Positions 2,620 through 28,273 of a stretch of 33,079 nt of DNA are shown in pieces. Positions within the stretch are counted from its first letter, which is position 1. Every line of letters starts with the position of its first letter. Position numbers and translations under genes: made by a program. Under the pieces are notes generated by a model, which was given only the letters and a program-made list of their open reading frames with translations, ran no database searches and had not been told where the DNA came from. Where the stretch lies: the IMG/VR virus record IMGVR_UViG_2698536401_000003. The stretch is one strand, 5' to 3'. This stretch comes from a virus (lineage: Duplodnaviria > Heunggongvirae > Uroviricota > Caudoviricetes).

Positions 2620-2996
2620 GGTGTCAGAGGAACCTGTTCACCGTTCTGAACATCACCGGTGGAGACCGGCATACCACTCAGGGATAAAACCAGACTGCCC
2701 CCGTCGCCAAGCGCGTCATAAGACCAGGTGTTTTTTACATCCTCATTCAGCGCATCCACATCCTGTGACGGGTCCGTATTCCACATTGACCGGGAAACCA
2801 GCCAGGCGTTGATATCCATCCCCATACGCAGAAATTCAATCTGACGTTCAGCCACCGGCATGGCATCATCCAAGGCGTCAAACTCAGCCGTCCGTTTCTG
2901 GACAAACGACAGATATTCCACCCGCTGCAGCCCGGACAGTTCTGTCATAACCACAGACTGATCACCGTAATTAAATGTGTCCTGTTTCAGAAACAT
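2607..2996 (-). CDS. G: Tail assembly chaperone G
   Basis: ORF 2607..3017 trimmed to the internal ATG at 2996 (MFLKQDTF..., lambda G starts MFLKTESF) preceded by a GGAGAAGG Shine-Dalgarno; lies between V and T as in lambda. Confidence 0.8.
   Translation of the reverse strand: MFLKQDTFNYGDQSVVMTELSGLQRVEYLSFVQKRTAEFDALDDAMPVAERQIEFLRMGMDINAWLVSRSMWNTDPSQDVDALNEDVKNTWSYDALGDGGSLVLSLSGMPVSTGDVQNGEQVPLTPEKS
2613..2619 (-). promoter_or_regulatory. Candidate -1 frameshift slippery site (GGAAAAG) for the G-T fusion
   Basis: Minus-strand sequence ACACCGGAAAAGTCCTGA at the end of G; it is the only X-XXY-YYZ-like heptamer in the 28-nt G/T overlap. It deviates from the canonical lambda GGGAAAG. Confidence 0.4.
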
Positions 2997-3056
2997 AACC
3001 TTCTCCGCAAACAACAAAAAAACCCCGGCATACCGGGGTACAAACAGACCGTCTGA

Positions 3057-3797
3057 TTAACCACCATTAACGGTAATACTGGCCACTGCGACCTGTGCGC
3101 CACCCGCTGTCATCCCGACAATCGAGGTGCTTCCCGCTTTCACACCTTTCACCGTGGCCACCATGCCACTCAGTGTAACCGTGGCGATCTCAGGAGAGGA
3201 TGACGCCACACTCACCGTTTTATCAGATGCATCTTCCGGTACTGTGCTGAATGTCAGCGTCGTCGTTGCCCCCACCCTGACACTGGCAGATGCCGGTGCC
3301 ACCGTCAGACCGGTCACGCTAACAAGCCCGGTGCCTTCCTCTGCCAGATACGGACGTCCCACACCGCTGATTTTCACAGTGCGGGTCATCACCTCTTTAG
3401 AGGTAACAGTTTTCCCCAGCGAGCTCAGCCAGCCACGGAAAACATCAACAGTGCCGTTGGGATATTTGATACGAAACGCACAGACTTCACCAGAGTCGAA
3501 CAACTGAACCAGTTTTTTCTGCCCGCTGTCACCCGGACGCCAGGCCAGCGTCGCCGAAGTATCACCGACGGATTTTTGCCCCTGGGTTGTCGTTTTCCAG
3601 TCAGCATTTTCATCATCGAGATAATCGTCATCTTCCGCATCTGCAGTCATTTCGCCCGGCTGTAAATCCTTCACCATCGCAAGACGCAGCCAGTCAGTAT
3701 CTGACAACGGAGCCGCAAAGGCGTCCCCTTTGCCGGTATACATCCAGAACGTCGTCCCCGCGCCCTTCGTTTTTTCCAGTGGATTCGGTGTTGGCAT
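3057..3797 (-). CDS. V: Major tail protein V with C-terminal Ig-like domain
   Basis: ORF 3057..3815; start placed at the ATG at 3797 (MPTPNPLEKTKGAGTT, lambda V MPVPNPTMPVKGAGTT) with an AGGAG SD, giving 246 aa as in lambda V. Recalled similarity runs along the whole protein. Confidence 0.9.
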   Translation of the reverse strand: MPTPNPLEKTKGAGTTFWMYTGKGDAFAAPLSDTDWLRLAMVKDLQPGEMTADAEDDDYLDDENADWKTTTQGQKSVGDTSATLAWRPGDSGQKKLVQLFDSGEVCAFRIKYPNGTVDVFRGWLSSLGKTVTSKEVMTRTVKISGVGRPYLAEEGTGLVSVTGLTVAPASASVRVGATTTLTFSTVPEDASDKTVSVASSSPEIATVTLSGMVATVKGVKAGSTSIVGMTAGGAQVAVASITVNGG

Positions 3798-19034: not shown

Positions 19035-19409
19035 CTACCGCATATCCATATCTAACCTAACATTCAGAGCCATAAGCATTCCTTCAATAATACCTTCCGC
19101 TTTATAAAGTCTTTTACCAATAAGCCCATCAGAACATCTATGCTTACGTGCAAGAGCCATAAATGTCATTCCACCTACGTAATAATCCACCAACAAATCG
19201 TGCAAATACTGATTATTCTTGTTTAATCGTGCCATACAGCCACAAATTATCATGGCGTCATCATCAGAACACTGAGGACGTGATTTCACTTTAGTCGGGA
19301 TTAATCCTTTAAAACCAGCAGCTATCGAGGGCCATGTTACATCTTCATGATTATTTGCTGCCCATGCTCCCCACCGCTCCATAACCAGCTGAATATCACG
19401 CAACATCAT
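19035..19409 (-). CDS. Small phage antitermination protein Q-like (family assignment from memory)
   Basis: 124 aa; motifs [27 protein letters not shown] and [14 protein letters not shown] recalled from E. coli prophage proteins annotated as antitermination protein Q; located directly after rusA, the usual Q position. Confidence 0.55.
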
Positions 19410-19773
19410 TACATCCTCTTATTACGAATATATTCACACCCAGTCGCCCACCGCAAACAGGCAGACCACGCACTATATTGATTTCATCAAACTGCTCGTC
19501 GTCGATAATCAACCCGGCATGTGTGAGCGCATCCAGCGGCGCTTTCAGGATATTGTCCAGGTCGCGGCGGCGCTTATCCGGTGGCTCTGCAATAATCTTT
19601 ATCGCCAGCCTTCCGGACAGATTTAATTTCAGTCGCTGCTGGCGAACAATAAGCGCCACATCCCGGCGATAACGCTCCCCTGCTTTTGATACAAAATATG
19701 TGCTGCCACGACGACGCCAGTAGGTATTCACCGTCGGAAGGTAAGGCAAAACAAATTCTATGCGTTCAGTCAT
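19396..19773 (-). CDS. rusA: Holliday junction resolvase RusA
   Basis: 125 aa; [30 protein letters not shown] matches the RusA catalytic region (DRRRRDLDN...DD); typical nin-region position upstream of Q. Confidence 0.85.
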
Positions 19774-20832
19774 TTATGATTTCCACTTCAGGACGCCCGA
19801 ATTTTTCGCGTGCATTAAAAAACGAATCAGCAACAACAGCTGGCTGCCGTGTTTTTCTTCAAAATCTTTTACCCCGGCGTGTAGTTCGTTATGGCATTTA
19901 CGGCACAGCGGAATAACAAACAAATCGTCAACCTTTGTTCCCATCCCTCCCAGTCCATGACCAATGATGTGATGCGGATCATCTGCCTGATTGCCACACG
20001 TCATGCATTTCTGCGTTTTTACCCAGCGCGTGTATACGGGCATCTCTTCCCGTTGTGGTTTCTGGCGCTGGAGATACTGAGCCGGAGACTCCGGATCAAC
20101 AGTGATGCTTACCACCGTCTTTTCCTGTGGCGGGTTCTGTTGCTGGTGAGAGTAAGACGGCGGCACTATATTTTTTGTGCGCTGTTTCAGTATGCTGGTG
20201 GCGGTCTGTTCTCCCGGTACGATGTCGCTTTCGCGGTACACTGAGCGGATGTTTTCACCCGGAAGTTTCAGGATTCGACGCGCCATATTTTCGGTCATGG
20301 CATCCACCACATTATTTACAACAGCCCAGCAGTACAGTTCAGCCAGTGATAATTCACGCCCCTGCGTGCCATTCATTGCGTGACGGATGACGTCAATCAT
20401 CCAGGCTGCCAGATTTTGTTGAGCAAGCAGCTCCAGCGATTCTGATGTCTGGTCACGAAGCTGGTTGTCGCAGTGCCAGCACAACACCATCGCGCCGGTA
20501 CCGTAACGGTGTATGACGGTTTCACTGTGATGGTAATCACCATGAGGCCACTGGCAGGATTTAACATTGCGCAACAACCAGTCAGACAATGCACCAGTAC
20601 CACCAGCAGCACGAATCACCCGCTCATCGCTGAAAAATGGCAGTAATGATTTATCTTCCGCCAGCGGCTGGCGAACAGCAGGAACAACTCCGGACGGCAG
20701 ACCGCGCATGCTTTTCGGTTCCGGTTCCACCAGCACCCGAGGATTATGAAATACCCGCATGGATTCACGGCCCGGTTTTAGCACCACCAGCCCAAGTTCC
20801 GGCACCGGAACAGGTCGAAGTAATACCCGCAC
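19774..20832 (-). CDS. Cys/His-rich prophage protein (DUF968-like, recalled) with C-terminal HNH-like motif
   Basis: 352 aa; C-terminal KCMTCGNQADDPHHIIGHGLGG...PLCRKCHNELH; position between the nin genes and rusA. The true start may be internal. Confidence 0.55.
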   Translation of the reverse strand: MRVLLRPVPVPELGLVVLKPGRESMRVFHNPRVLVEPEPKSMRGLPSGVVPAVRQPLAEDKSLLPFFSDERVIRAAGGTGALSDWLLRNVKSCQWPHGDYHHSETVIHRYGTGAMVLCWHCDNQLRDQTSESLELLAQQNLAAWMIDVIRHAMNGTQGRELSLAELYCWAVVNNVVDAMTENMARRILKLPGENIRSVYRESDIVPGEQTATSILKQRTKNIVPPSYSHQQQNPPQEKTVVSITVDPESPAQYLQRQKPQREEMPVYTRWVKTQKCMTCGNQADDPHHIIGHGLGGMGTKVDDLFVIPLCRKCHNELHAGVKDFEEKHGSQLLLLIRFLMHAKNSGVLKWKS

Positions 20833-20833
20833 G

Positions 20834-21112
20834 TTACCTCCAGATGCGTTGCTGGTATGTGCGGGATGGACGCGGTGGACGTTCGGAATAAGGGAGCCTG
20901 ACAGAGATTATCCAGTGACGATAATCGAGGCTGAGGGCTTTCTTAACCTCGTATCCGCACCTGCCGTAACACTGAATCAGCCATTCGGCCTGTTCTTCAG
21001 TGCATGGGGGATGCTGGTACCAGTCAGATTTGAATACATGAGAACGCCGCCCGTGCCTGCTGGCAAGAGCGGCTGAATTATCAGAATTGTGTAATTTGGT
21101 CTTGTGCGCCAT
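20834..21112 (-). CDS. Hypothetical phage protein (93 aa, Cys-containing)
   Basis: ORF 20834..21193 trimmed to the internal ATG at 21112 because the first 80 nt of the ORF overlap a terminator hairpin; start uncertain. Confidence 0.45.
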   Translation of the reverse strand: MAHKTKLHNSDNSAALASRHGRRSHVFKSDWYQHPPCTEEQAEWLIQCYGRCGYEVKKALSLDYRHWIISVRLPYSERPPRPSRTYQQRIWR

Positions 21113-21184
21113 CTGTTTTCTCTGCTGGCGCAGCAGGTGCCAGTTGTTCAGGCTGGCGTGCAGATTGTAAACCAGAATGCCCGG

Positions 21185-21216
21185 AAAAAACAAAACCCGC
21201 CGAAGCGGGTTTTCAT
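21185..21216. terminator. Bidirectional rho-independent terminator downstream of the Doc-family toxin gene
   Basis: AAACCCGC-cgaa-GCGGGTTT hairpin flanked by an A-run and TTTTC; the same core recurs at about 22041-22058. Confidence 0.6.
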
Positions 21217-21227
21217 TGGAAGCGCCT

Positions 21228-21713
21228 TTAGTTTTGCTGTTCTATTTTAAGCTTGATAGTTTCATACAAAACAATAGTTGCGCCTGTTTTACATAATTCC
21301 CGGCTGTCATACGCGCGAGACCAATAACACAACCAGTTCTCGAGATCTTCTCGAGTATAGGTTTTGCAGGCCAGTCCCTCCGCCATTTCCACGATTTCAT
21401 CGCCTGGTGCTGTTAACTCATAGCCATTCAACAACAAGAAGACGCAACCAGCCATCATAGCTGTTCGTTTGTTCGCATTAGCAAACGGATGATTCTGAAT
21501 CAGACTTTCAATCAATACCGATGCCAGTACAAACATGTCATTAGTCTGTTCATACCATCGAACCATGCTGGGACGGGCCTGAGAAGAACTTAAGTTATCT
21601 GGACTCAGAACACCAACGGGCTCATCTGGCGTCTGTAATTCAATTAGGGAACGATTGATTTCAACAAGATCATCAACCGTAAGGTAATGCACTCCTTCAA
21701 CAATCTCAGCCAT
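21228..21713 (-). CDS. Doc (death-on-curing) family toxin, Fic/Doc superfamily
   Basis: Doc-type motif HPFANANKRTA (HxFx(D/N)(A/G)NKR); 161 aa from the ATG at 21713; a small ORF ends 18 nt upstream. Confidence 0.8.
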   Translation of the reverse strand: MAEIVEGVHYLTVDDLVEINRSLIELQTPDEPVGVLSPDNLSSSQARPSMVRWYEQTNDMFVLASVLIESLIQNHPFANANKRTAMMAGCVFLLLNGYELTAPGDEIVEMAEGLACKTYTREDLENWLCYWSRAYDSRELCKTGATIVLYETIKLKIEQQN

Positions 21714-21731
21714 AGAGCACAATACCCATCA

Positions 21732-21959
21732 TTACACTTTTGAAAGTTCTTCCATGGCTTTCTCATAACGAGAAAAACCGAAATCAAAAGCATTTTTCAC
21801 TTGTTCACGATGTGCGCAGTTTTCATCAATCGCTGGGCGAGGGACTGCCACAACGCTTTTATCGCGAGGCGGAATACTCAACCGCGTGTGTTTTTTGAGT
21901 GGGCAGCTCATACTAATGAGTCCTTTTGTTTTCCGATTATTGGCAAAGCCATGCACCAA
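21732..21959 (-). CDS. Candidate antitoxin for the Doc-family toxin (small upstream ORF)
   Basis: Small ORF immediately upstream on the same strand in the canonical antitoxin position. The start is ambiguous (TTG at 21959, GTG at 21956, ATG at 21911). No recognised Phd similarity. Confidence 0.45.
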   Translation of the reverse strand: MVHGFANNRKTKGLISMSCPLKKHTRLSIPPRDKSVVAVPRPAIDENCAHREQVKNAFDFGFSRYEKAMEELSKV

Positions 21960-22033
21960 ATTTGATGCAAAATAGATCTGTTTGAGATCCTTAGGATAGT
22001 CTAATGGTAGCTAAAATTACAACCTCATAATGC

Positions 22034-22058
22034 GACGAAAAACCCGCCGAAGCGGGTT
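22034..22058 (-). terminator. Rho-independent terminator downstream of hok
   Basis: Minus strand: AACCCGC-ttcg-GCGGGTT stem followed by TTTTCG. Confidence 0.5.
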
Positions 22059-22126
22059 AAGTGCGGGTGCGTTGAGGATGCCTGACACATCAGAGGTGGC
22101 GAGGGATTTCTCCCCCGCCAGGTCTC

Positions 22127-22282
22127 TTACTCCTCAGATTCGTAAGCTGTGAAGACAGCGACCTCCGTCTGGCCGGTTCGGATTCGTACCTCGCAGAGGT
22201 CTTTCCTCGTTACCAGTGCCGTCACTATGACGGTTAAACAGATGACGATCAGGGCGATTAACATCGCCTTTTGCTGCTTCAT
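22127..22282 (-). CDS. hok: Hok family type I toxin (host-killing membrane peptide)
   Basis: 51 aa MKQQKAMLIALIVICLTVIVTALVTRKDLCEVRIRTGQTEVAVFTAYESEE, near-identical to the chromosomal HokD/RelF-type Hok peptide as recalled. Confidence 0.9.
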   Translation of the reverse strand: MKQQKAMLIALIVICLTVIVTALVTRKDLCEVRIRTGQTEVAVFTAYESEE

Positions 22283-22339
22283 AGCCTGCTTCTCCTTGCC
22301 TTTCGGCACGTAAGAGGCTAACCTACGTTTGTGTAGCAT
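22127..22339 (-). CDS. mok: Mok (modulator of killing) overlapping reading frame, in-frame N-terminal extension of hok
   Basis: 70-aa ORF starting 19 codons upstream of hok in the same frame, as in mokC/hokC-type loci. Confidence 0.65.
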   Translation of the reverse strand: MLHKRRLASYVPKGKEKQAMKQQKAMLIALIVICLTVIVTALVTRKDLCEVRIRTGQTEVAVFTAYESEE

Positions 22340-22400
22340 AGATTGGGCCTCAGATTAATGTTAAGCGTCTTGCCGGACGCGTAATGTTAACTGGGGCTTT
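22300..22400 (+). ncRNA. sok: Putative Sok antisense RNA region (approximate)
   Basis: Inferred from hok/mok locus architecture, where the antitoxin RNA is antisense to the mok start region. Candidate -35/-10 TTGCCT-17 bp-TAACCT on the plus strand near 22294-22322. The boundaries are not determined. Confidence 0.3.
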
Positions 22401-22620
22401 TCTCTGTCTGCCTTACAGTGGCATGCCCGAGGCAGACAGCCTCAAGCACCCGCAACAATCTTACCGACACCGATAAGAAAACGCTATTTTTTATTGCCAG
22501 AACCTTCTGCCCAGGCTAATGTATCCGCGTCAGAACGGCGCAATGCGCTCGCCTGAGATACGTTTACTTGTCATTGGTGGCAACAGATAACGGCAATTGT
22601 TGTTTCTGTTTGTTTCCTTC

Positions 22621-22655
22621 AAAAACCCCGGACCGTCAATCCGGGGTTTTTGTTT
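22621..22655. terminator. Bidirectional rho-independent terminator
   Basis: AAAACCCCGGA-ccgtcaa-TCCGGGGTTTT hairpin followed by TTTTTGTTTGTT on the plus strand. Confidence 0.6.
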
Positions 22656-22736
22656 GTTATCCCCAGCGGCAAATCGAATACACCACCAGCGCCACCGCCA
22701 TTGCGATTCCTGCCGTTGTAAATGCCTCAGGCCAGG

Positions 22737-23603
22737 TCATCGTAAAACATCCTCCACACCAACCAGTCCGTTCTGCTTCAGATATTCCATCGCCTTATCA
22801 GGTAGATTGCTTGATTTATTGACGCTTTTTAACGAACTGGCTAATCGCTTAACCAACATTGTTAATTCGTTAACCTGTTTTCCGGATGCTTGTGGATTGT
22901 CAGTTTTACCAGAAGTGGCGGTACAGTCGGCGTTCCCACTCTTCTCCTCCTGCGACGGTTTTGCTGCAATCTGACTGGCATGTTTGTTAATGGTAACGAT
23001 CAGCTCTTGCTCAGCCTCATCAAGACAATCACTGATACCTCGCCTGTCACCGTCAAAATCATCGAAATCGGCGCGAACCCTGGCAAACTTCAGGATTGCA
23101 GACAACACCTCACCAGGAATTACCGGAGAGTTGGTTGACGTTTCCGAGATTTTCCGAAAATTATTGGTTGACGAATCCTTGTTTTCCCGAAAGCTTCCTG
23201 ACTGAAGCATGGCTTCGCGGCAATCGTTCCATCCTTCAGCATAATCACTATACGCAAGAGGCCAACCTCTTATGTATTCACGCGGCAACTTATCAGGCAC
23301 TACCAGCGCTGGCGATGCTGCATAAAGTGGTGTTATTTCTGCCCGAAAGTCACCTACTTTATGCAGTCGCACCCACCGTTTGGCTTCTGCTTTGTCAGAA
23401 TACATAGCGGTGAACGTATTATATTCATGGTCAATTTGCGTGAAGGTTGCCTTCCACGCCACCGGCTCAGCTTCCAGCGATGCCAGTGCAATTTTGAATA
23501 ACTCACCCTCTATCCGTGCCATCCCTGAATTGGGGTGACATTTCGTAATCGCTATTTTTAATTTGGCCTCTTCGATTAATTGTTCTTTGGTTAATTCAGC
23601 CAT
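22737..23603 (-). CDS. Hypothetical prophage protein (288 aa)
   Basis: Long ORF in the nin-region gene string; no motif I recognise. Confidence 0.65.
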   Translation of the reverse strand: MAELTKEQLIEEAKLKIAITKCHPNSGMARIEGELFKIALASLEAEPVAWKATFTQIDHEYNTFTAMYSDKAEAKRWVRLHKVGDFRAEITPLYAASPALVVPDKLPREYIRGWPLAYSDYAEGWNDCREAMLQSGSFRENKDSSTNNFRKISETSTNSPVIPGEVLSAILKFARVRADFDDFDGDRRGISDCLDEAEQELIVTINKHASQIAAKPSQEEKSGNADCTATSGKTDNPQASGKQVNELTMLVKRLASSLKSVNKSSNLPDKAMEYLKQNGLVGVEDVLR

Positions 23604-26666: not shown

Positions 26667-27092
26667 TCAATGCACCACCACGGCATTTCCCGCTGGGCCG
26701 CCACGATTCATCTGATTGAAACCAGCAATCGCCACTGCGACAAAATCATCAGCGTCTCTCACCAGTCGTTCCCGCGTCTCCACCAGTTCCCGAAAATAGG
26801 CTGAACTGTGGCTGCGCATTCGGGCCACCAGCAGAGGTGGCATTGCTTTTTCGATCGCTGGTAACAACGCCTGAATTTTTTTAACCGCATCAGGAGTGTC
26901 TTTCTCCACCCAGCGGAAAATTTTCTGGGTGTTACGGCCCAGGGCTTCCGGATGGCTGTCGTCGTACAATTCCGGGAACGTCATACCGAGTTCGAAATAC
27001 GCTTTGGTAATTTTCGCAGCCGGTACTTTCTCGCCGTCTGGATGCGCCCAGGCATTCATCGCCATGCGGATGTGTTCATGCTTGATTTTCAT
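26667..27092 (-). CDS. YdaT-like protein (CII-position regulator of Rac-type prophages; assignment by size/synteny)
   Basis: 141 aa, starts MKIKHEHI; lies between the cro-like gene and the replication initiator. Confidence 0.5.
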   Translation of the reverse strand: MKIKHEHIRMAMNAWAHPDGEKVPAAKITKAYFELGMTFPELYDDSHPEALGRNTQKIFRWVEKDTPDAVKKIQALLPAIEKAMPPLLVARMRSHSSAYFRELVETRERLVRDADDFVAVAIAGFNQMNRGGPAGNAVVVH

Positions 27093-27348
27093 GAATCAAC
27101 TCCGGCGCATTTGATGTGTTAACCTTACATCCAACAGGTAAACCGTCGGTTGGGTTAGGGTATTTATCAGGGCGCAATTCATGCGGAGTCACTCCCCAGC
27201 CAAGCGCCTCACATGCTGGAATGACCTCCTCCGCAGGAACTCGTTTTTTAAACCACCCACTTATAGTTTGTGGAGTTTTACCAAGACGACGCCCTAACTC
27301 TGATTGGCTCATTATCGACAGGATTTTCACTTGAGTACTTTTTTGCAT
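27076..27348 (-). CDS. Cro-like HTH regulator (YdaS-like)
   Basis: ORF 27076..27360 trimmed to the ATG at 27348, which is preceded by a GGAGG SD; HTH MSQSELGRRLGKTPQTISGW; divergent from the repressor gene. Confidence 0.7.
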   Translation of the reverse strand: MQKSTQVKILSIMSQSELGRRLGKTPQTISGWFKKRVPAEEVIPACEALGWGVTPHELRPDKYPNPTDGLPVGCKVNTSNAPELIHENQA

Positions 27349-27360
27349 GTTTCCCTCCAA

Positions 27361-27474
27361 ACTTTACGATGGCACCGATAATTACAAATTTAATTTTAAT
27401 TTTCAACTTCTATTTGTAATGCCACTTATCAATTTTTTCTGTAGGATTGCAGGATTAGTTTTCGAGGGGTGGTG
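27361..27474. promoter_or_regulatory. Immunity-region intergenic operator/promoter region (OR-like)
   Basis: AT-rich 114-bp divergent intergenic region containing TTACAAATTTAATTTTAATTTT...ATTTGTAA inverted-repeat elements; a related motif recurs at 28636-28674. Confidence 0.5.
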
Positions 27475-27867
27475 ATGATCTTTGTAAAACGCCTTCAGCA
27501 GGTGTTGCAGGAATTGAATATAAACCAGTCAGAGCTGGGAAGACGTCTTGGTGTAAAACCCCAATCCGTGCAAGGTTGGTTGAAAGGCGTGATGCCAAGA
27601 ATGGATAAATTGGAAAAATTAGCAGAGCTCTCACAACATCCCGTCCATTGGTTCTTTATGGAAGAAGAAACTCTCGGCGATAAGATGGCTGTATCCAGTA
27701 ATGACAACCAACCGCAACTTACAGAACAACAACGAAAAATCATATCGCTTTTAGATGAGTTACCTCAAAGCGACGCAGAGCAGATCATTCGGGATATGGA
27801 GCAAAAACGCGATTTCTATAAACGCAAACTTGAAGAGTTACTGCGGCAGAAAAACAAAACTGCCTGA
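27475..27867 (+). CDS. CI-like prophage repressor (HTH XRE family; RacR-like position)
   Basis: ATG at 27475 after GAGGGG; HTH NQSELGRRLGVKPQSVQGW; divergent from the cro-like gene. Confidence 0.8.
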   Translation: MIFVKRLQQVLQELNINQSELGRRLGVKPQSVQGWLKGVMPRMDKLEKLAELSQHPVHWFFMEEETLGDKMAVSSNDNQPQLTEQQRKIISLLDELPQSDAEQIIRDMEQKRDFYKRKLEELLRQKNKTA

Positions 27868-27913: not shown

Positions 27914-28273
27914 TTATAATCCCACCAGGCTTTCCAAGGGGATACCAAATTGATTATGAAGACGGCGAATCATTGGTAACGTAAGGCTTCTGGTGCCATT
28001 CAACACCTCGTAAACCCGATTTTTTTTTCCAATTGCGGGTTCCAAATCTTTCACGGTCAGCCCCTGCTGTTCCATGCGAAATCTTATAGCTTCAATTGGG
28101 GATGGTGGCTCAATGGGATAATGTTTTTTTTCATATTCCGCTATTAGCAAACACATCACCTCAAAGAAATCCCCCTCAGGCGTGTTAATTTCCGGCTCAT
28201 TGTCGAACATGGGCTCAACAGCACGCAACGCGGCTTCATAATCTTGCTCTGTACGAATAGGTTTGATGTTCAT
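27914..28273 (-). CDS. higA: HigA-family antitoxin (HTH XRE)
   Basis: 119 aa; C-terminal HTH KNRVYEVLNGTRSLTLPMIRRLHNQFGIP, like HigA; start overlaps the higB stop. Confidence 0.75.
   Translation of the reverse strand: MNIKPIRTEQDYEAALRAVEPMFDNEPEINTPEGDFFEVMCLLIAEYEKKHYPIEPPSPIEAIRFRMEQQGLTVKDLEPAIGKKNRVYEVLNGTRSLTLPMIRRLHNQFGIPLESLVGL

Follow-up and report, generated by a model that had tools for sequence, protein, structure and literature searches.

A short segment of a prophage genome raises two questions: what is the small gene that precedes its Doc-family toxin gene, and why does this pair lie directly beside a hok/mok/sok locus? The segment spans positions 21,113 to 22,620 of the viral contig IMGVR_UViG_2698536401_000003, and the whole stretch of DNA that was analysed, 33,079 nucleotides in length, is termed the window. 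A sequence-only reading had described the segment as two unrelated, adjacent toxin-antitoxin (TA) modules, and this description is borne out by matches to Doc (TIGR01550, Pfam Fic) and to Hok (HOK_GEF, RF01794). Its observations are confirmed and its interpretation is supported, with corrections to the start of the Doc partner and to the role expected of hok/sok.

Taken together, the data make it probable that this region is a hot spot that has received two independent TA cassettes, one of the hokW-sokW type and one comprising doc and its partner, here termed orf59, with terminator hairpins forming the module junctions. The hok/sok locus, as well as a higBA module elsewhere in the window, are of kinds already known, and Doc is already annotated by PGAP. 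What is new is twofold: on comparative sequence data, an orphan family of 59-residue proteins is assigned as the obligate, and probably neutralising, partner of a Doc subfamily, and the cassette is defined to the base pair. Coordinates are collected in Table 1.

A small gene strictly linked to Doc

The identity of the toxin gene is clear. Its product matches the NCBIfam model TIGR01550 (DOC_P1) with 126.9 bits against a cut-off of 38.65, Pfam Fic with an E-value of 9.3e-12, and phrog_577, 'Doc-like toxin', with an E-value of 5.4e-51; PGAP labels the gene 'death-on-curing family toxin'. The translation contains the motif H75-P-F-A-N-A-N-K-R83, which fits the Doc motif HXFX(D/N)(A/G)NKR as quoted in PMC13034048. 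The nearest solved relative is Doc of Enterococcus faecalis (9VZC; E 4.1e-13), followed by Doc of P1 (3K33/3DD7), and the motif region aligns with both 9VZC and 3K33. A C-terminal tail of approximately 30 residues extends past the TIGR01550 model.

The upstream gene is of a different character. Orf59 has a full-length match to phrog_2208 only, a family of 'unknown function', and no Pfam, NCBIfam, PADLOC or PDB relative was found with either the single sequence or a 41-member profile. When the 41 family members were searched against Pfam, nothing matched at E <= 1 apart from scattered noise. Alignment with P1 Phd by hhalign returned a probability of 1.4%, with no Phd/YefM similarity, in agreement with the earlier remark that the partner is unlike Phd. 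The family is also small, as an exhaustive profile search of 1.84 billion representative proteins recovered only 37 clusters at 50% identity, nearly all of 47-95 residues.

The partner gene had been proposed to be a 75-codon open reading frame (ORF) that begins at a TTG codon (21732..21959). The gene itself is real, but its start is placed here at the ATG at 21911, which has an AGGA sequence 9 nt upstream and gives a 59-residue product ending 18 nt before the doc ATG. The longer frame is open in the window, and one JGI gene call gives a product of 74 residues (P0001). Against this stand the homologues, which are 56-60 residues long across genera and start at the equivalent Met, and the PGAP calls in relatives, which are 180 nt long. 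Moreover, the sequence 5' of this ATG differs among alleles, and that of the O157/O104 allele is unrelated there. That the partner is a 75-residue protein initiated at TTG 21959 thus has next to no likelihood.

The evidence that ties orf59 to Doc is its genomic context. The linkage set comprises 97 orf59-encoding loci, namely 14 genomes of different species in 10 genera, 80 IMG/VR contigs and 3 phage records; as these loci were collected with a closer alignment (A1), the set is biased to relatives with at least ~55% identity. In 97 of 97, orf59 is followed on the same strand, after 10-60 nt, by a gene for a Doc homologue. The reciprocal look-up, begun from Doc proteins that share 64-67% identity with that of the window, found a 59-residue homologue 10 nt upstream in all three cases (a Rahnella chromosome, Lonsdalea and a metagenome contig). 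The identities of orf59 and Doc to the window copies co-vary (r = 0.96, not corrected for phylogeny), and orf59 is under purifying selection, with a nonsynonymous-to-synonymous rate ratio of 0.07-0.19. In these genomes, orf59 behaves as the obligate partner of this kind of Doc.

The sites occupied by the pair vary. It lies beside an integrase gene in Pseudomonas P2-like phages and at an apparently non-phage chromosomal site in Rahnella. It is also found within phage tail gene clusters, at 1312..1968 of contig L107 (Lonsdalea quercina), where it separates a tape-measure-like gene from a DNA-circulation-like gene, and at 1311..1983 of contig L108. Such insertions into tail clusters indicate that orf59-doc travels as a moron among phages of very different types.

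A predicted minimal antitoxin

The family is defined by two conserved segments, RLxIPxRDK near the N-terminus and QVxNAFxxGFxRYEKAxEELSKV at the C-terminus. In the AlphaFold2 model, residues 1-33 lack regular structure and residues 34-57 form a single confident helix (mean predicted local distance difference test score 81); there is no folded N-terminal DNA-binding domain. This shape has a precedent. The antitoxins of the two solved Phd-Doc complexes show no similarity in sequence, yet each inserts a C-terminal helix of ~25 residues into Doc (PMC13034048). In addition, a Doc can be neutralised by a Phd-C element on its own, and antitoxins that serve only to neutralise are known (PMC10440598). 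Because of these precedents, orf59 is read as a minimal, Phd-C-like antitoxin and not as a member of Phd/YefM.

If orf59-doc is a two-gene type II operon with orf59 as its minimal antitoxin, the expected mechanism is as follows. Doc, a predicted Fic-fold kinase, would arrest translation by phosphorylation of EF-Tu. Orf59 would most likely neutralise it through its 24-residue C-terminal helix, placed in the concave face of the toxin as in the unrelated Phd proteins, and would do so without the folded DNA-binding domain that Phd antitoxins carry.

Comparison with known systems shows what is shared. Like phd-doc of P1 and Phd-Doc of E. faecalis (3K33, 3DD7, 9VZC), the window pair has a Fic-fold Doc with the motif HXFX(D/N)(A/G)NKR, a small gene directly upstream in the operon, and a predicted C-terminal helix of ~24 residues that resembles the Doc-inserting segment. 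Unlike Phd, orf59 has only 59 residues, no sequence or profile similarity to Phd/YefM, and no predicted N-terminal DNA-binding domain; and whereas P1 is a plasmid prophage, cassettes of the window type occur on integrated lambdoid, P2-like and other prophages. The same concept underlies Doc:PanA(Phd-C) and the single-domain 'neutralisation-only' antitoxins of the NetFlax survey (Ernits et al. 2023, PMC10440598), in which a short linear or helical element neutralises Doc on different scaffolds or alone. Orf59 differs from PanA(Phd-C) in lacking both a Panacea domain and detectable Phd-C similarity. A Doc with a non-Phd antitoxin is therefore a known phenomenon (PMC10440598, PMC13034048). No publication on the orf59-doc pair emerged from literature searches by protein accession, by phrog_2208, or by death-on-curing together with hok, lambdoid or Shiga toxin.

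Two further resemblances were considered. By eye, the orf59 helix shares an F-x3-F...EL spacing with Phd residues 52-73; this is unsupported by hhalign, and the proposed Phd-C likeness was dropped. The Fic class I inhibitory motif, (S/T)xxxE(G/N), was not seen in orf59, by inspection only.

Several observations weigh against an antitoxin role. Profile, hhalign and PDB searches detected no antitoxin family that resembles orf59, and a Foldseek search of its model against the PDB was empty, as expected for a single helix; because of this, the assignment draws on synteny, size, position and predicted shape. No clear Shine-Dalgarno sequence precedes doc, a generic scan finds no strong sigma-70 consensus promoter for the operon, and neither Doc nor orf59 has a meaningful PADLOC defence-system match, that of Doc being marginal (E about 1e-3).

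One possibility would be that orf59 is an obligate partner of another sort, such as a subunit conferring specificity or activation, a small regulatory protein or a mimic of the target, and that the pair is a phage effector, for example a kinase acting on proteins of the host or of competitor phages. This would accommodate the missing resemblance to known antitoxins and to any recognisable DNA-binding fold, the strong conservation of the IPxRDK motif in the N-terminal third of orf59, and the range of moron sites that the pair occupies, among them sites next to integrases and within tail gene clusters. Fic/Doc proteins are also capable of different chemistries (PMC10440598). The organisation of the locus argues otherwise: the small gene comes first, the gap is 10-60 nt, both genes are on the same strand and the pair has its own terminator, which is the classic type II layout. 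The catalytic motif of Doc is intact, a lone C-terminal helix is the Doc-neutralising element in the solved complexes, and the curated NCBI model TIGR01550 already lists the toxin as part of a type II TA system. An effector pair is accordingly considered unlikely, and a minimal antitoxin remains the most likely identity of orf59.

A more far-reaching proposal can be made tentatively. Orf59 (phrog_2208) may found a new class of minimal Doc antitoxins, about 59 residues long and devoid of a DNA-binding domain, in which one C-terminal helix neutralises the toxin and the conserved, unstructured IPxRDK segment does something new, with the ~850 bp cassette serving as an abortive-infection or superinfection-exclusion device. 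The chance that all of this holds is perhaps modest, but if it does, the IPxRDK segment might occupy the substrate site of the kinase or sense a phage trigger, and the cassette would be a portable unit spread over phages of Enterobacterales and Pseudomonas.

At a minimum, a 59-residue 'hypothetical protein' annotated beside a 'death-on-curing toxin' gains a testable functional assignment. If confirmed, orf59 would be among the smallest Doc antitoxins and would show what suffices to neutralise a Fic-fold kinase. A minimal neutraliser of this type also bears on work with antitoxin-mimicking peptides (PMC9207808, PMC10728895).

Boundaries of the Doc cassette

The same hairpin core had been noted after each module. 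It proves to be a direct repeat of 20 nt, AAAACCCGCCGAAGCGGGTT, exact in its two copies (21192-21211 and 22039-22058), and 100 shuffles yielded no match. On the transcribed strand, both copies read AACCCGC-TTCG-GCGGGTT followed by a T run. Copy 1 starts 16 nt after the doc stop codon, and copy 2 starts about 70 nt after that of hok.

The phage vB_EcoS-640R1 defines the boundaries. It has no Doc genes, and sequences corresponding to the two flanks in the window abut with a single hairpin copy between them. As this phage has one copy and the window two, the Doc cassette is an exact 847-bp insertion or deletion, consisting of 827 bp and one copy of the repeat. Other genomes show different occupants of the same slot. 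Strain RSHH22 has a rem-like gene after the Doc terminator, and three E. coli-type contigs (L050-L052) have the Doc cassette without hok. What begins directly after the Doc terminator also varies among E. coli-type contigs, with at least six unrelated sequences at this point, and homology between different E. coli prophage backbones stops immediately past it.

Hairpins of the form AACCCGC-loop-GCGGGTT are also found 3' of Doc in other genera, where they sometimes overlap the stop codon, and the exact 18-nt core occurs in Xenorhabdus, in Salmonella-type contigs and in many diverged viral contigs. Since this type of hairpin follows Doc in other genera, the identity of the two copies is not in itself proof of recombination, a point that tempers the junction model. 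For the same reason, the repeat was rejected as a transposition footprint. No gene for a transposase or integrase, annotated or otherwise detected, adjoined the cassette in the loci inspected. This hairpin is a strong terminator of a common kind, with a UUCG loop, and doubles as a junction for module exchange among lambdoid phages.

In the resulting model, an 847-bp Doc unit (promoter region, orf59, doc and terminator) would sit exactly between two hok-type terminator hairpins, and these hairpins would act as junctions for recombination among lambdoid phages. This amounts to mosaicism at the level of the base pair, in which one slot can hold hok, hok and rem, hok and Doc, hok and Doc and rem, or Doc alone.

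The spacer between hok and orf59 is consistent with a self-contained unit. Inverted repeats GATCT-N5-AGATC and TGCATC-N6-GGTGCA lie just 5' of the ribosome-binding site, and each spacer allele has short inverted repeats right before that site. The partly conserved blocks TAGCTA, ATTAGACTA and GGTGC.T.GC.TTGCCAA recur 5' of orf59 in the hok-less contigs L050-L052 and, more loosely, in other genera. These features suggest that 21912-22038 carries the promoter and operator of the Doc operon itself.

Adjacency of hok and Doc

The Doc cassette is present in 125 of 5426 complete E. coli genomes, in all cases on the chromosome, and its carriers include O104:H4, O157:H7 and O103:H2 strains. It is contiguous with hok in at least 112 of the 125. 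One explanation would be that hok/sok and orf59-doc are one functional unit, co-regulated or cooperating on induction via antiterminated read-through, so that their adjacency is selected. The frequency with which the cassette directly follows hok is in keeping with this, as are the orientation of both cassettes along the early operon and the production of HokW on RecA-dependent induction (PMC8621323).

The wider distribution points elsewhere. Relatives of the pair occur in 10 other Enterobacterales genera (including Yersinia pestis, Providencia, Serratia and Xenorhabdus) and in Salmonella and Pseudomonas phages. Outside E. coli-type phages, hok stands beside the Doc pair in 0 of 17 genome and phage-record loci and in none of the diverged viral contigs, and within the E. 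coli type, L050-L052 have Doc and lack hok. Conversely, hok-type loci are present in about 4700 E. coli genomes, nearly always without Doc. In the window, hok and the Doc genes are set apart by a terminator and by a distinct regulatory spacer. A single functional unit is therefore highly improbable.

Because the pair is never beside hok outside E. coli-type phages, and because nearly all hok loci lack Doc, the adjacency is read as incidental. It is best explained by insertion into a common hot spot and subsequent spread via flanking homology, without functional coupling; a single such insertion would account for the adjacency. The region would thus be a moron hot spot between replication/ea22-like genes and the nin/Q region, holding two independent and self-contained cassettes, both oriented with the early operon and each predicted to end in its own intrinsic terminator.

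A related arrangement is found in E. coli K-12, where relBE-hokD (relF) of the cryptic prophage Qin places a type II module and a hok gene side by side in the same lambdoid region, adjoining rem and ydfU (DUF968). There the type II family is RelE/RelB, and hokD is reported to be without upstream regulatory elements. The window differs in having Doc/orf59 instead of RelE/RelB and in retaining a complete hok locus.

Contig L007 (E. coli O104:H4 2009EL-2071) carries a further module, as a convergent pair encoding a RelE/ParE-family toxin and a helix-turn-helix (HTH) protein lies right after the Doc terminator (2837..3466). This places three TA modules (hok, orf59-doc and relE/HTH) within about 1.8 kb.

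The hok/mok/sok locus

The second cassette belongs to a type whose archetype is hok/sok of plasmid R1. Hok matches Pfam HOK_GEF with 81.6 bits (cut-off 22) and phrog_251, 'MokW-like host killing' (E 6.4e-33). Matches to the NCBIfam Hok models fall below the strict cut-offs of these models, and PGAP names the gene hokD in relatives. Rfam RF01794 ('sok') matches 22277..22451 over its full length, starting from model position 1, at 116 bits, the gathering score being 59. The alignment lies on the hok-sense strand and stops at the AUG of hok, indicating that the model as built describes the hok leader, and not the antisense Sok RNA, which lies inside the matched leader. Strand calls taken from RF01794 should be read with care.

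The predicted mRNA is highly structured. Its minimum free energy (MFE) fold has -176.4 kcal/mol (z -6.9), with the 5' end paired with CCUCAACGCACCCG at the 3' end in an fbi-type closure. Both the MFE and the centroid fold pair nt 1-13 with this element, just 5' of the terminator. Such a closed 5'-3' architecture is familiar from the hok mRNA of plasmid R1. On the opposite strand, the Sok stretch 22331-22404 (-30.6 kcal/mol, z -5.6) is predicted to form a single-stranded 5' end of ~9 nt, a long hairpin and a U-rich tail.

By analogy, the mechanism would involve a stable, folded-shut hok mRNA encoding a 51-residue membrane toxin, whose translation may depend on the upstream mok frame; a short antisense Sok RNA, transcribed from a promoter inside the leader, would block hok translation.

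The closest studied system is hokW-sokW of the Stx2 prophage Sp5 in E. coli O157:H7 Sakai (Takada et al. 2021), where HokW is toxic and sokW RNA counteracts it (PMC8621323). The Min27 phage serves as a stand-in for Sp5 hokW, because its leader matches the primers YO-349 and YO-351 of the Sp5 study. The window hok-mok locus is 93% identical in DNA to the hokW/mokW locus of Min27 over ~405 nt, the central ~54 nt of Sok RNA are identical, and Hok is identical at 48 of 51 residues to the Hok part of the annotated mokW/hokW product, with three substitutions at the C-terminus. In both, the mok frame is in frame with hok, as annotated for the mokW coding sequence of Min27; the mok annotated in the 'Rac' record terminates 7 nt away from the stop codon of hok and is thus in another frame. 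The first leader hairpin (22410..22445, minus strand) has one compensatory pair change relative to Min27 (L104), from G-C to A-U, with pairing kept: its arms are GGCUGUCUGCC/GGCAGACAG in the window against GGCUAUCUGCC/GGCAGAUAG, and the loop sequence is replaced.

The predicted regulatory elements coincide with those probed experimentally. The sokW probe YO-592 used for northern blots (Table 2 of PMC8621323) has its complement at 22331..22360. The 'promoter-less' sokW primers YO-421/422 alter TAGGTTAG, the complement of CTAACCTA, so that the TAACCT box predicted at 22319-22324 coincides with the mutated -10 box of sokW (PMC8621323). This promoter was not among the sites listed by a generic promoter scan. 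Sok core, -10 box TAACCT, in-frame mok and 5'-3' mRNA closure are thus common to both loci, which are of the same family and occupy the same position class in lambdoid phages; the terminator hairpin and the sequence after it differ, the window having the Doc cassette there. As judged by homology, the window hok/mok/sok locus is an orthologue of the experimentally validated hokW-sokW of Sp5.

This bears on its function. The sequence-only reading had expected roles in prophage stabilisation or abortive infection. In Sp5, mitomycin C abolishes sokW RNA and triggers HokW production that depends on RecA, and deletion of hokW-sokW halves phage release; the only role tested for hokW-sokW is aiding phage release on induction, and not stabilisation or abortive infection (PMC8621323).

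Prophage setting and higBA

The window is a lambdoid prophage that reads on the minus strand, from early genes on the right to late genes on the left, and the hok, orf59, doc and higBA genes are all on this strand. The location near the nin/Q region given earlier agrees with the DUF968, RusA and Q-like genes at 19.0-20.8 kb. To the right, a YdaS/YdaT-type pair and an HTH repressor-like gene lie at about 26.7-27.9 kb, and to the left of these are genes for a DnaC/IstB-like ATPase, DUF977 and DUF4406. Farther left than the nin/Q block are the DNA methyltransferase, tRNA-Gly, endolysin, small and large terminase, portal, protease and major head protein.

Table 1. Features of the window discussed in the text, with strand and basis of assignment
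Feature	Position	Strand	Basis or remark
tRNA-Gly (TCC)	16093..16165	minus	between Q-like antiterminator and lysis genes
DNA methyltransferase, 348 residues	16383..17429	minus	between Q-like antiterminator and lysis genes
Q-like antiterminator	19035..19409		nin/Q-proximal block
RusA	19396..19773		nin/Q-proximal block
DUF968	19774..20832		nin/Q-proximal block
Doc-cassette intrinsic terminator (holds repeat copy 1)	21192..21213	minus	terminator scan, AAAACCCGCTTCGGCGGGTTTT then GTTTTTT
doc, 161-residue Doc-family (Fic-fold) toxin	21228..21713	minus	TIGR01550, E 4.5e-37
orf59, 59-residue partner of Doc, predicted antitoxin	21732..21911	minus	phrog_2208, E 6.9e-41
Regulatory spacer of the Doc cassette	21912..22038	minus	putative own promoter around ..CATTAGACTAT..
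hok terminator hairpin (repeat copy 2)	22039..22058	minus	terminal hairpin of hok mRNA fold
Putative full-length hok mRNA, 5' tac end GGGUGCUUGAGG to terminator	22040..22452	minus	Rfam, fold, Min27 homology; ends inferred
hok toxin gene, 51 residues	22127..22282	minus	Pfam HOK_GEF, E 3e-23
mok-type frame, 70 codons, in frame with hok	22127..22339	minus	ORF list; GAGG before ATG
Predicted Sok promoter	22296..22324	plus	read from sequence; -35 TTGCCT (22296-22301), 17-nt spacer, -10 TAACCT (22319-22324)
Putative Sok antisense RNA	22331..22404	plus	fold and Min27/probe match; ends inferred
higA-type HTH antitoxin, 119 residues, downstream of higB	27914..28273	minus	Pfam HTH_3, E 3.9e-06
higB toxin, 100 residues	28276..28578	minus	Pfam HigB_toxin, E 4.8e-33

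The suggestion that higBA is a third TA module holds, with the HigB_toxin match accompanied by HTH_3 and with the gene order of HigBA modules, in which the RelE-like toxin HigB precedes the HTH antitoxin. Both proteins also match components of a PADLOC defence system, higB matching PD-Lambda-2_A (E 1.1e-40) and higA matching PD-Lambda-2_B (E 8.3e-42). The 119-residue HigA covers only positions 1-119 of the 402-position PD-Lambda-2_B profile and is thus not a full-length B component; no search for further components of the system was made. By these matches, higBA looks like a truncated or simpler relative of PD-Lambda-2.

Smaller features surround the island. Directly 3' of the Doc terminator, a 92-residue ORF (20834..21112, minus) belongs to phrog_1212 and lacks a Pfam match; one phage record calls it 'toxin to Rem', and PGAP 'hypothetical'. 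On the other side, a hydrophobic ORF of 27 residues (22657..22740, minus) has a start that overlaps the stop of a 288-residue ORF (ATGA). A perfect 13-bp inverted repeat 3' of it (22620..22652) is terminator-like and apparently closes the upstream operon. In O104:H4 and O157:H7, PGAP has a 34-residue hypothetical protein where the window carries this 27-residue ORF. Finally, the YdaS-like (94 residues) and YdaT-like (141 residues) genes (26667..27360, minus) adjoin the divergent HTH repressor-like gene (27469..27867, plus). Pfam labels the pair 'toxins', and their location suggests regulators of the cro/cII type in the immunity region.

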